DNA from: Felis catus
Taxonomy: Eukaryota
Assembly: GCF_018350175.1 (NCBI RefSeq)
Contig: NC_058368.1
Coordinates: 15,564,001 to 15,628,000 of the forward strand
Length of the DNA stretch: 64,000 nt
Direction: 5' to 3'
Below are positions 7,128 to 60,575 of this stretch, in pieces (position 1 is the stretch's first letter; the number at the start of each line of letters is the position of its first letter). A program made the position numbers and the translations under genes. Under the pieces are notes generated by a model. That model was not told the origin of the DNA and did no database searches. It saw only the letters and a program-made list of their open reading frames with translations.

Positions 7128-9884
7128 ATTCATTCTATGAGGTCAGCATCACCCTGATACCAAAACCAGATAAAGACTTCACTAAAAAGAGAACTACAGG
7201 CCAATATCCCTGATTAACATGGATGCAAAAATTCTCAATAAAATACTAGTAGATCAAATCCAACAGTATATTAAAAGAATCATTCATCACAATCAAGTTG
7301 CATTTATTCTTAGACTGCAAATGTGGTTCAATGTTTGCCAATCAATGTGATACACCACCTAAGAACCATATTTTCCTTTCAGCTGATGTAGAAAAAGCAT
7401 TTGACAAAGTGCAACACTGATTCATGATAAAAATAAAAAATTTAAAAAAAAACTCAAAAAGTAGGGATAGAGGCAACATACCTCAACATAATAAAGGCCA
7501 TATACAAAAACCCACAACTAATATTATCCTCAACGGGGAACAATGGACAGCTTTTCCTCTAAGGTCAGGAACAAGACAGGGATGTCCACTCTTACTACTG
7601 TTATTTAACATATTACTGGAAGTCCTATCGGAGGAATCAAACAACACAAAGAAATAAAGTGCATCCAAATAAGCAAGGAAGAATCCAAATTTTAAATATT
7701 TTAACTAAAGGGGCACCTGGGTGGCTCAGTTGGCTCATGTCATGATCTCACAGCTCGTGAGTTCGAGCCCCACATTGGGCTCTGTGCTGACAGCTCACGG
7801 CCTGGAGCCTGCTTGGGATTCTGTGTCTCCCTCTCTCTGTCCCTCCCTGCTCACACACTGTCTCTCTCTCTCTCTCTCTCAAAAATAAACATTAAAAAAA
7901 TTAAATATTTTAACTATGACATGATACTCTATATAGAAGACCCAAAGATGCCATCAAAAAACTGTTGAAACTGATACACGAATTCAGTAAAGTTGCAGGA
8001 TATAAAATCAACACACAGAAATCTGTTGCATCTCTAGACACCAACAACAAAACAGTAGAAAGAGAAATCAAGGAAAAAATCCCATTTACAACTGCATCAA
8101 AAACCATAAATTACCTAGGAATAAACCTAACCAACTGAAAACTATAAAACACTGATGAAAGAAACTGAAGAGGACACAAAGAAATGGAAAAACATTCCAT
8201 GGTAGAATAAATATTGTTAAAATGTCTATAGCCCTCAGAGCAATCTACATATTTAATGCAATCCCTATCAAAATACGACCAGCTTTTTTTTCACAGAGCT
8301 AAAACAATCCTAAAATGTATATGAAATTACAAAAGACCCTGAATAGCCAAAGCAATCCAGAAAAAGAAAAGCAAAGCTGGAGGCATCACAATTCCAGACT
8401 TCAAGTTATATTACAAAGCTGTAGTGATCAAGACAGTATGGTACTGGCATAAAAACAGACACACAGATCAATAGAAAAGAACAGAAAACCCAGATATGAA
8501 CCCAAAACTATATGGTCAATTCATCTTCAACAAAGCAGAAAAGGATATATCCAATGGAAAAAAGATGTGTCTTCAATAAATGGTGCTGGAAAAATTGGAC
8601 AGCAACATGCAAAAGAATGAAACTGGACCACTTTTTACACCATAAACAAATATAAATTCAAAATGGATTAAAGACCTAAATGTGAGATAGGAAACCATTA
8701 AAATCCTAGAGAGCACAAACAGTAACCTCTTTTTTTTAATGTTTATTTATTTTTGAGAGAGAGCACATGCAAGCAGGGGAGGGACAGGAAAAGAGGGGTA
8801 CAGAGGATCTGAAGTGGGACAGGTGTGCTGTCACAGGTGCTGACAGCAGACAGCCCAATGTGGGGCTTGAACTCATGAACCGCAAGATCATGACCTGAGC
8901 CAAAGTCAGACACTTAACCAACTGAGCCACCCAGGCACCCCTGGAACCTCTTTGACATTGGGTGTACCAACTTATTACTAGATATGTCTCCTAAGGCAAG
9001 GGAAACAAAAGCAAAAACAAACTATTGGGGGGTGCCTGGGTGGCTCAGTCAGTTAAGCGTCTGACTTCAGCTCAGGTCATGATCTCACAGTCTGTGAGTT
9101 CAAGCTCCGCCTCAGGCTTGTGCTGACAGCTCAGAGCCTGGAGCCTGCTTCGGATTCTGTGTCTCCCTCTCTCTCTGCCCCTCCCCTGCTCATGCTCTGT
9201 CTCTCCTGTCTCAAAAATAAATAAAAACATTAAAAAATAAATAAACTATTGGAACTACATCAAAATAAAAAGCTTCTGCACAGCAAAGGAAACAATCAAC
9301 AAAATTAATAGGCAACCTATGGAATGGGAGAAGATATTTGCAAATAAAATATCTGATAAAGGGTTAGTATCCAAAATATAAAAAGAACTTATAAAAGTCA
9401 ACACCCATAAAAACAAATAATCCAGTTTAAAAAATAGGCAGAAGACATGAATAGACATTTTTCCAAAGAAGACATACAGATGGCCAACAGACATATGAAA
9501 AGATGTTCAACATCACTCATCATCAGGGAAATACAGATCAAAACTACAATGAGATATTACCTCACACCTGTCAGAATGGCTAAAATCAACAACACAAAAA
9601 ACAACAGGTGTTAGCAAGGATGTGGAAAAAGGGGAACTCTCTTATACTGTTGGCAGGAATACAAACTGCTGCAGCTACTCTGGAAGACAGTATAAAGGTT
9701 CCTAAAATGTTAAAAATAGAACTACTCTACAATCCAGCAATTGTACTATTTACCCAAAGGATACAAAAATAATAATTTGAAGGGATACATGCACCCCAAT
9801 GTTTATAGCAGCATAATTAACAATAGCCAAATTATGGAAAGCACCCAAATGTCCATTGACTGATGAATGGATAAAGAGGATGTG

Positions 9885-30720: not shown

Positions 30721-31385
30721 TATGTAGCAGAAACACTTCTAAGTTTCCTTTTGCTTCTAAAACTTTATTATGCTATTAGTCTTAAAACTGTATTTAGTTC
30801 ATTAGAAAATAGTACTTCTTTCCATCTCCACACATTTAACACTGAACAAAAGGTACAATTATATGAAACCTGTATCTGTAGAGGAGTTCAGAAAATGAGC
30901 TTCAGAACACAAAGCTGCATGCTTTCTTCAGGAGTAAATCCAATGATACATGAAAGAATGTGTTGTTACTCTTAATTTCCTCAACATAGTGCTGAGCTTT
31001 GCCTGTATGTCAGGAATACTAGGACAATACGTGAGGCATTTCCTCATCTGCAGTCACTCTCCTTCACTGCCACAATGTATACCTTGTTGGGCTACCACCT
31101 GGAAGTATTTTTCAATTCAACTCATGCTTAACTCACAATTTATATTAAACTGTAATGGTCATTAGATCATGAGTTTGATGTGCTAAACTTATACTACTCA
31201 TCAAAATAAAAACATCAGTATCGGGGCGCCTGGGTGGCTCAGTTGGTTAAGTGTCTGACTTTGGCTCAGGTCATGGACTAGCAGTTCGTGAGTTCAAGCC
31301 CCACATCAGGCTCTGTGCTGACAGCTCAGATTCAGAGCCTGCTTCAGATTCTGTTTCTCCCTCTCTCTCTGTTCCTCCCATGCTT

Positions 31386-52198: not shown

Positions 52199-52379
52199 TG
52201 CCAGGTTGTGGCACACGCCAGCTTCACATCTCCCATTTCAAGACATTTTGGGACAAAATACTATGATAATTAGCATTAAAACGCCGTAAGTCATAAAATC
52301 GCTCAGGAGCCATCTTAACTTACACTGTGGAGTTCCAGTACAAAAGTGTTTTTGAAACTTTTTAGACACAGTAGGTTTC

Positions 52380-53510
52380 AGCAAAAAAGCGCGGTCTTAC
52401 CGAGCGCGCACAGAGAGACTTCAACTGCACACAGAACCTCCACAGCAGCGGCGGCGCCAGCGCAGCGAAACGCAACGCAGCGCTTCCAGCCAGCGCCGCA
52501 GCCGCACTTGCGCAGTCAGCTCCTTCGCTGGCTGCTCAGCCCCGCCCCTCAGAGATGCGAAGTTCCCAGAAAGGCGCCAGGCAGAGAAACGCTCACGCGC
52601 GAGACGCGGCCGCGCAGGCGCAGTCAGGGCCCCCTCACCTAGCCGGAGCCTTTTCCCCTCCGTGGTCTTTGGCTTGCGAAGTGCCGCTGGGCTTCGCATT
52701 TGTTGAAAGGCTGGGGTCGTGGACCCCTGCAAGGTGTCAGCAGCACGGAGGTGCAGGGCGTCGTCGAGGGTGCGGGGCCGGGCGCCGCCGGTGGCGCGCT
52801 CCGCCCCGGGGCCCCCGCCACTGCTCTGGGCCAGGCCCTGGCTCCAGCCTCCGTCCCGGCCCCGGCCTCGCAGTTCACCCTGCTGGTGATGCACCCCTGC
52901 GGAGGGCAGGACGAGTCCGCGGCGGAGGGCGTCCTCAGGCAGCCTCCGGCCCTGGGGGACGGCGGCGCCGGGACGGGCAAGTCCATTAGGTACCTGTGCG
53001 AAGTGGCGGGGGCTGGCGAGGAGGAGGCAGGGGAGGACGAAGCCGACCTGCTGGACACTTCAGACGCCCCGGGGGGAGGCGAGAGCACGGCTAGTTTGGA
53101 GGATCTGGAGGACGAGGAGACACACTCGGGGGGCGAGGGCGGCAGCGGGGGAGCCCGGAGACGGGGTGGCGGCGGGGGCAGCATGAGCAAGACCTGCACC
53201 TTCGAGGGCTGCAGCGAGACCACGAGCCAGGTGGCCAAGCAGCGCAAGCCTTGGATGTGCAAAAAACACCGCAACAAGATGTACAAGGACAAGTACAAAA
53301 AGAAGAAAAGTGATCAGGCCCTGAACTGCAGTGGGGCCGCCCAGCCTGGCAGCGCGGGAAACGTCAGACTGGAGGTATCAGACCTTAGCTGGGGTCTTGG
53401 GGAGTGGGAGGTGGTTAGGGGGGGAAACAACACTCTTAGCGCAAACCGCGTTTCGTTTCCAGCGCTGCCCGCCGGCTCCCAAATGGGCCAGGTTGCTATG
53501 GCTCGACTTG
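52380..53510. promoter_or_regulatory. CpG island / TATA-less promoter of RFXAP
   Basis: Abrupt rise in GC and CpG density. GC box CCCCGCCCC at 52540-52548, TTCCCAGAA at 52563-52571, NRF1-like GCGCAGGCGCA at 52612-52622. Confidence 0.85.
52745..53374 (+). CDS. RFXAP: RFXAP coding exon 1 (210 codons; starts at ACG in the position homologous to the human ATG; first in-frame ATG is at 52889)
   Basis: Translation (T)EVQGVVEGAGPGAA...SQFTLLVMHPC...RYLCE...EEEAGEDEADLLDTSD...SLEDLEDEETHSGGEG...MSKTCTFEGCSETTSQVAKQRKPWMCKKHRNKMYKDKYKKKKSDQALNC...NVRLE matches RFXAP as I recall it. Ends at a phase-0 donor GAG|gtatca (gt at 53375). Confidence 0.95.
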
Positions 53511-57850: not shown

Positions 57851-57958
57851 GAAAGTACAGATAACATACTCTCCATTGTTAAACAAAGAACAGGAACCTT
57901 TGGGGATCGTCCTGCAAGACCCACTCTTTTAGAACAAGTGTTAAATCAGAAAAGACTG
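57851..57958 (+). CDS. RFXAP: RFXAP coding exon 2 (36 codons)
   Basis: Polypyrimidine acceptor tttttatcatttatcccag|GAA; translates ESTDNILSIVKQRTGTFGDRPARPTLLEQVLNQKRL; donor CTG|gtaaat; phase 0/0. Confidence 0.96.
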
Positions 57959-59190: not shown

Positions 59191-59668
59191 GGGGCGCCTG
59201 GGTGGCGCAGTCGGTTAAGCGTCCGACTTCAGCCAGGTCACAATCTCGCGGTCCGGGAGTTCGAGCCCCGCGTCGGGCTCTGGGCTGATGGCTCAGAGCC
59301 TGGAGCCTGTTTCCAATTCTGTGTCTCCCTCTCTCTCTGCCCCTCCCCCGTTCATGCTCTGTCTCTCTCTGTCCCAAAAATAAATAAACGTTGAAAAAAA
59401 AAAAAAGTATAATAAAAAAAATAAATAAAACCAGTAACTAGAAAATGTACTTTGCTCTAATGTTAAGGTTTTTTTTTTTTTAAGTTTATTATATTGAGAG
59501 AGACAGAACAGTCACGGGAGGGGTAGAGAGGGAGTGGTGGGGACAGAGGATTTGAAGCAGTCTGTGCTGACAGCAGAGAACCTGACATGGGCCTCAAACC
59601 CACAAACCGCAAAATCATAATCTGAGCCGAAGTCAGATGCTTAACCAACTGAGCCACCCAGGTGCCCC
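59191..59668. mobile_element. Inverted Can-SINE pair in RFXAP intron 2 (young + copy 59191-59428; older - copy ~59468-59668)
   Basis: TSD taaaaccagtaactag for the + copy; TSD tctaatgttaag for the - copy. Confidence 0.92.
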
Positions 59669-60464: not shown

Positions 60465-60575
60465 TCATTACTAAGAAGTCCAGAAGTGGTGCAATTTTTA
60501 CAGAAACAGCAACAACTATTAAATCAGCAAGTTTTGGAGCAAAGACAGCAGCAGTTTCCAGGAACATCAGTGTGA
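60465..60575 (+). CDS. RFXAP: RFXAP coding exon 3 (Gln-rich C-terminus, stop TGA)
   Basis: Acceptor ttttctttttaag|TCA; translates SLLRSPEVVQFLQKQQQLLNQQVLEQRQQQFPGTSV*. Confidence 0.96.
   Translation, partial: SLLRSPEVVQFLQKQQQLLNQQVLEQRQQQFPGTSV

Follow-up and report, generated by a model that had tools for sequence, protein, structure and literature searches.

RFXAP is a subunit of the major histocompatibility complex (MHC) class II enhanceosome, and its loss causes MHC class II deficiency. The closest described system for the gene considered here is mouse RFXAP: its mRNA, NM_133231, is entered with an ACG start at nucleotide 97 in Table 1 of validated RefSeq mRNAs with non-AUG starts (2008, PMC2396638), where Peretti et al. 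2001 is cited for this start. Other mRNAs in the same table have near-cognate starts of CUG (MYC, FGF2 and BAG1) or ACG (PRPS1L1). We analysed a stretch of 64,000 nucleotides from the genome of the cat (Felis catus, NC_058368.1, positions 15,564,001 to 15,628,000 of the forward strand; hereafter the window), in which a sequence-only reading had noticed an RFXAP frame that appears to open with ACG at position 52745. As judged from the alignments described below, this codon is orthologous to the curated mouse ACG start and to the ATG start of monkeys, and felid RFXAP probably keeps the ancestral non-AUG start codon of the gene. We consider it probable that an RFXAP of 282 amino acids is initiated at this ACG as a minor product, beside a form that begins at the first in-frame ATG, codon 49 (Met49).

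According to the table cited above, mouse RFXAP is an orthologue in which a non-AUG start is accepted at this very codon. Mouse-like contigs read Thr-Glu-Ala at the site and the equivalent of Met49 follows in frame; three mouse-like spliced contigs (P0108, P0345 and P0347), in a cluster that includes a Mus musculus fragment, have Thr at the site and 231 residues counted from it. The two genes differ in that the segment before the downstream Met has 27 residues in mouse and 48 in cat, and in that felid database models do not use the ACG. Monkey-type RFXAP (macaque P0036 and the primate-like P0067) shares with the cat an orthologous segment of 48 residues, its conserved end blocks and Met49, but codon 1 is ATG, so that the long form should arise by ordinary initiation. 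As in the mRNAs of the MYC, FGF2, BAG1 and PRPS1L1 type, a near-cognate codon in a good context lies upstream of an in-frame AUG, allowing two N-terminal forms per mRNA; unlike in these, the near-cognate codon of RFXAP sits where salamanders and monkeys have AUG, and one codon alternates between AUG and ACG. Literature searches on the RFXAP start codon gave only PMC2396638 as relevant, and among the papers listed none was found on how widely the ACG is shared or on the monkey ATG as a derived state. The depth of ACG conservation and the AUG/ACG alternation across tetrapods, as documented here at the protein level, would be new.

The segment studied here is exon 1 of the felid RFXAP gene, at the 5' end of a three-exon gene on the + strand (Table 1). 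The exon 1 product is 98% identical to RFXAP of Panthera leo, has 671 protein matches at E<=0.001 and matches the Pfam family PF15289 (RFXA_RFXANK_bdg) with an E value of 6.4e-26 and a score of 91.3 bits (cut-off, 26.1). For the C-terminus, a match to PDB chain 2kw3_C, from the solved RFX5-RFXAP structure, was obtained with an E value of 5.2e-30. A single RFXAP match was found in the 2.4-Gb assembly to which the window belongs. Joining of the three exons gave 282 amino acids from the ACG and 234 from Met49, the lengths that had been predicted. The remaining observations on the local sequence were also confirmed: the ACG has A at -3 and G at +4, the frame is closed upstream by an in-frame TAG, 35 codons 5' of the ACG, and no ATG occurs in any frame between 52558 and 52888. 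The open frame, from 52643 directly behind the TAG to 53524, continues to the donor of exon 1 and beyond. Only two ATGs are present within 52500-52900: that of codon 49, at 52889, is in frame and that at 52555 is not. The sequence thus has the anatomy of a near-cognate start, as -3 is a purine, +4 is G and the frame holds no AUG from its upstream stop to the ACG. Two further features of this region were considered as signals and rejected. The lack of ATG from 52558 to 52888 is not beyond chance, as 0.39 ATG is expected and 61% of 2000 dinucleotide-preserving shuffles were equally free of ATG. The RNA 3' of the ACG folds at -61.8 kcal/mol over 101 nucleotides, and this stable fold carries no weight because base composition alone yields it (z -0.19; 79 of 200 shuffles fold as well or better).

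RFXAP proteins were then collected by two word-indexed searches, a full HMMER scan of cluster representatives and two cluster look-ups, and each protein was anchored by script on the codon-1 site and on the conserved motif before Met49. The 72 rows obtained represent 63 distinct N-terminal versions, two of which are from the window itself. Codon 1 is Thr in 58 of the 63 versions and Met in five. A cross-species check of this codon had been proposed with the sequence-only reading; run on proteins, the alignment gave Thr for lion, leopard cat, both hyenas, meerkat, polar bear, walrus, sea otter and fox among the carnivores. Thr was likewise found in ungulates (camel, rhinoceros, horse, cattle and goat), several whales, horseshoe and leaf-nosed bats, a desman, a shrew, two pangolins, hare and rodents (squirrel, beaver, kangaroo rats, jerboa, chinchilla and a pocket gopher), two lemurs (Lemur catta and Prolemur simus), aardvark and golden mole. 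Outside placentals, it was detected in Monodelphis, in Anolis, in a snake cluster (Vipera, Crotalus and Liasis) and in an Alligator cluster. The ACG had been taken as a trait of one lineage, and this view was wrong.

The five versions with Met are the macaque protein P0036, the primate-like spliced contig P0067, the His-tagged construct P0035, the Microtus oregoni model P0107, in which Met may merely reflect the annotation of a non-AUG start since related voles have Thr, and the pilot-whale P0063, an intronless copy described as 'low quality, RFXAP-like'. The alignment places the cat ACG at the position of the monkey ATG start. In salamanders, the newt Lissotriton (P0280) and a close relative (P0281) begin with Met at the position homologous to Thr. 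Teleosts have a different, ATG-started N-terminus, which still contains the TLL motif. Because Thr is common in placentals and is present in opossum, anole and the snake and alligator clusters, the ATG of monkeys would be the derived state; since both lemurs keep Thr, this ATG would have arisen within primates. As the simplest history we infer that AUG changed to ACG before the mammal-reptile split and was retained as such, that it returned to AUG in primates after the lemurs, and that the start was lost in birds.

The same counts bear on a sequencing or assembly error, a private start-loss allele or C-to-U editing of the ACG to AUG in the mRNA, the first two of which had been raised with the sequence-only reading. 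No support for any of these was found, although ACG turns into ATG by a single CpG transition, so that such variants can arise, and the whale retrocopy P0063 does have Met. An allele or error is refuted by the Thr that dozens of species share (58 of the 63 distinct versions), and the sequencing runs agree with this: in a search that found 24 runs, 14 DNA-like runs (four studies, same organism) contained 1.00 of 122 words sampled from 52300-53500, which is indirect evidence on the ACG. Spliced mRNA contigs of three other species (P0013, P0101 and P0108) carry the Thr plus 9-41 upstream codons and read Thr rather than Met, indicating that in these species the codon is part of the mature mRNA and escapes editing to AUG. 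The protein of the spliced contig of the cat itself, P0002, begins at codon 3 as called. Error, allele and editing are altogether extremely improbable.

Conservation and codon periodicity both begin at the ACG codon. Among 54 placental rows, the mean consensus fraction was 0.55 at positions -14 to -1 (entropy 2.05 bits) and rose to 0.81 at positions +1 to +14 (0.95 bits). For the 35 rows with a full upstream flank, the fractions were 0.59 vs 0.84, with the step at -1/+1. Positions 1-6 are partly fixed by the anchoring pattern; positions 7-14 are free, and their mean consensus was still about 0.78. Glu was found at +2 in all 54 placental rows, and this invariant Glu means that G at +4 is kept in all of them. 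The residue before Thr was Ser in 39 of 50 rows, and Ile, Thr, Gly or Val, each of which puts a purine at -3, in nine more; one Arg row is ambiguous at -3 and one Pro row is a tagged construct. GC content of the cat sequence by codon position was flat upstream (0.65/0.62/0.59 over 34 codons), 0.88/0.67/0.88 for codons 1-48 and 0.77/0.58/0.88 for codons 49-96. Thr1 and Met49 are 22 to 50 residues apart, with 18 different spacings that all leave the two ends in the same frame; some of these values represent shortcuts made by annotators (for instance, P0033 and P0060). The TLLV motif just before Met49 lies inside ATG-started ORFs (open reading frames) in teleosts (L001 and P0129) and in salamanders. 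This evidence, though indirect, points one way, to translation of the segment before Met49.

The strength of candidate start sites was next compared by using published reporter tables. In the study of near-cognate codons (Diaz de Arce et al., PMC5778536), an ACG gains about 7-fold from G at +4, and the highest values for ACG contexts are about 40; its table gives 14.2 for the cat ACG, which would be a start of low efficiency on that scale. The context of Met49 had been described as weaker than that of the ACG. This was not borne out, as its motif stands close to the consensus in the AUG table (Noderer et al., PMC4299517). Rfxap itself was not found in the supplements of that article. With such an efficient context at AUG49, the 234-amino-acid form is probably the major product. 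Taken at face value, the two tables suggest that the ACG would capture a minority of the scanning subunits and Met49 the majority.

Table 1. Features of the RFXAP locus and candidate start sites in the window. Reporter values of near-cognate codons are from the fluorescence-activated cell sorting and sequencing (FACS-seq) table of PMC5778536, where CACCAUGG = 100; values of AUG are from the table of PMC4299517, where consensus = 94, and are on a separate scale.
Feature	Position	Strand	Frame	Motif	Reporter value	Remarks
TAG closing the RFXAP frame upstream	52640..52642	+	in frame			no in-frame ATG between TAG and ACG
Initiation context agcACGg	52742..52748	+	in frame	CAGCACGG	14.2	ACG 52745-47, A at -3 (52742), G at +4 (52748)
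Codons 1-48, N-terminal segment	52745..52888	+	in frame			translated only if initiation is at a non-AUG codon; each end forms a conserved block, middle rich in Pro/Ala and variable in length
First in-frame ATG (Met49), start of 234-amino-acid form	52889..52891	+	in frame	CUGGUGAUGCA	84 (78-91), consensus 94	context ctggtgATGc
RFXAP exon 1, coding part	52745..53374	+				210 codons from ACG; donor GT 53375-53376
RFXAP exon 2	57851..57958	+				36 codons; acceptor AG 57849-50, donor GT 57959-60
RFXAP exon 3	60465..60575	+				36 codons plus stop 60573-75; C-terminal segment matching 2kw3_C
TTG	52700		in frame	GCAUUUGU	0.2	
TTG	52703		in frame	UUUGUUGA	0.2	
CTG	52727		in frame	ACCCCUGC	0.4	
GTG	52751		in frame	GGAGGUGC	0.4	
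CTG, codon 28	52826		in frame	UGCUCUGG	11.9	G at +4; possible extra minor start
CTG, codon 32	52838		in frame	GGCCCUGG	20.3	G at +4; possible extra minor start
ATG opening a 144-codon frame past Met49	52555..52989	+	out of frame			overlapping upstream ORF only if transcription starts 5' of it
CTG opening a 92-codon frame over ACG and Met49	52711..52989	+	out of frame	AAGGCUGG	18.3	strong context, A at -3, G at +4; ends 33 codons past Met49
GTG opening a 56-codon frame	52719-52889		out of frame	GGUCGUGG	3.4	its TGA shares bases with the ATG of Met49 (GTGATG)

An extended RFXAP might also be started from another in-frame near-cognate codon, either the CTG of codon 28 or 32 or one of the TTG and CTG codons upstream of the ACG. 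Both downstream CTGs have G at +4 and reporter values similar to that of the ACG, and the 14 codons 5' of the ACG are moderately conserved in frame. However, codons 1-14, which lie 5' of both CTGs, are the best conserved part of the segment, the three upstream in-frame codons score near zero (Table 1), and the upstream flank is without codon periodicity. Moreover, the frame seems not to be kept 5' of the ACG. NCBI models of two leaf-nosed bats (Desmodus and Artibeus; P0038 and P0059, with P0045 also concerned) start at an in-frame Met nine codons 5' of Thr; the cat triplet matching this Met appears to be the out-of-frame GTG at 52719, which suggests, from comparison of proteins, a difference of one base in the length of a C-run. 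The use of another near-cognate codon in place of the ACG is therefore improbable.

A different account would have RFXAP translated from Met49 only. The 144 bases before it would then be an untranslated leader conserved at the level of DNA or RNA, as part of a CpG-island promoter or as leader elements, and the ATG of monkeys would be a new upstream start that added 48 residues. Several observations weigh for this account and against initiation at the ACG. Apart from one retrocopy, all amniote sequences seen have Met49, and its context is efficient (84 vs 94). Many NCBI and UniProt models start there, among them the 234-amino-acid P0324 and two further models of felids. Models of marsupials and birds likewise begin at the equivalent Met, and a frog model (Pelobates, P0268) appears, by visual comparison, to do the same. 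Birds are without the Thr: the chicken-like P0252 has Ala at the site and Harpia gave no match, but LLVM is kept, so that conservation just before Met49 is by itself no proof of translation. The set of N-termini is biased to open frames: if codons 1-48 of a species were frameshifted, that species would be represented only by a model starting at Met49, and there are many such models. The rows are phylogenetically dependent, and some upstream flanks are junctions of annotators, which depress upstream conservation. All of the conservation evidence is at the protein level, the Thr codon being read as ACG only in the window and, from print, in mouse. Finally, the reporter values were obtained in mouse pre-B cells and for a short motif with few flanking bases.

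Against translation from Met49 only, amino-acid conservation and codon periodicity start at the ACG and not at Met49, and the 18 length variants hold one frame. In fish the TLLV motif falls within the coding sequence, codon 1 of salamanders encodes Met, and the mouse mRNA is curated as ACG-initiated in the table of PMC2396638. On balance, translation confined to Met49 is unlikely, and we favour initiation at both the ACG and Met49.

By this dual initiation, the ACG, with A at -3 and G at +4, would be read inefficiently by the initiator Met-tRNA of scanning 40S subunits, giving a minor form of 282 amino acids that begins with Met. Most subunits would scan past the ACG, some of them perhaps starting at the CTG codons 28 and 32, and the remainder would initiate at AUG49, which is efficient, to give the 234-amino-acid form, probably the major product. 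Both forms should retain the acidic and basic parts and the C-terminal part for binding of RFX5 and RFXANK, and would differ only in the N-terminal segment of 48 residues. In monkeys, in which ACG may have turned into ATG by a single C-to-T change at a CpG, the output should shift almost wholly to the long form. An ACG-initiated form plus a form from Met49 by leaky scanning had been proposed in the sequence-only reading. This part stands as the best reading, in agreement with the curated mouse ACG, and is modified in that the short form is probably the major one.

As a more tentative extension, which we hold to be possible and yet doubtful, the RFXAP start may have been ACG since before the mammal-reptile split (>300 million years), replacing the AUG that salamanders still have, and may have been kept together with its -3/+4 context and AUG49 under selection that holds the long form at a fixed, low level relative to the short one. 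If so, the lineages that altered this arrangement would have shifted the isoform ratio of a subunit of the MHC class II enhanceosome; these would be the monkeys, with AUG at the same codon, the leaf-nosed bats, with an in-frame AUG nine codons upstream, and the birds, in which the Thr is lost. Should the balance between the two forms be of consequence, RFXAP would offer a clean natural example of a single codon switching between AUG and ACG.

The apparent loss of a start codon in one lineage thus looks like the normal, ancestral state of RFXAP, already accepted for mouse. Felid models disagree on the N-terminus, and many models from other mammals are inconsistent too. Those of clouded leopard and Iriomote cat and the 234-amino-acid UniRef entry P0324, which matches the window, start at Met49 and have 233-234 amino acids, and those of lion (329 amino acids) and leopard cat (470 amino acids) pass through invented junctions to upstream ATGs. 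The lion model P0003 borrows the out-of-frame ATG equivalent to that at 52555, joined to the RFXAP frame by such a junction, and other upstream ATGs are used in leopard cat (P0320) and hyenas (P0316 and P0318; 330 and 379 amino acids). If the curated ACG start of mouse were transferred to the cat, a single consistent model of 282 amino acids would result.

Two of the out-of-frame near-cognate codons in Table 1, the CTG at 52711 and the GTG at 52719, open frames that overlap the RFXAP frame. If transcribed, these frames are possible inhibitory upstream ORFs. No Pfam family was detected by Pfam scan in the out-of-frame 144-codon ORF or in the two longest other ORFs.

The bird frames P0252, P0254 and P0255 keep LALLVM before the equivalent of Met49 and lack the Thr-Glu-Ala site; birds may have given up the upstream start. 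Several cetaceans have extra, damaged RFXAP-like copies (P0063, P0069, P0083, P0089 and P0248), of which at least P0063 is intronless. In this pilot-whale copy, Met stands in place of the Thr, and Thr in place of Met49; the former change fits a CpG transition from ACG, giving a hint that the whale codon is also ACG.

Searches for related loci gave one teleost locus only and no mammalian DNA among metagenome contigs, and none among genome contigs. A degenerate DNA pattern for the invariant basic motif had no match in genome contigs or viral contigs. A protein search seeded with the fish exon returned teleosts only, the deeper tetrapod sequences having come from the search of representatives. 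The teleost locus (L001) is a metagenome contig of 2961 bases that carries RFXAP exon 1 at 342-770, 97% identical to RFXAP of Lates japonicus, and is host or prey DNA in an environmental sample. In the window, three 85-nucleotide matches to the Rfam tRNA family were detected at 9034-9118 (+), 31228-31312 (+) and 59579-59663 (-), with 31.3-32.5 bits against a gathering score of 29. These are probably the heads of tRNA-derived short interspersed elements (SINEs) and not tRNA genes, and the match on the - strand sits within intron 2 of RFXAP.

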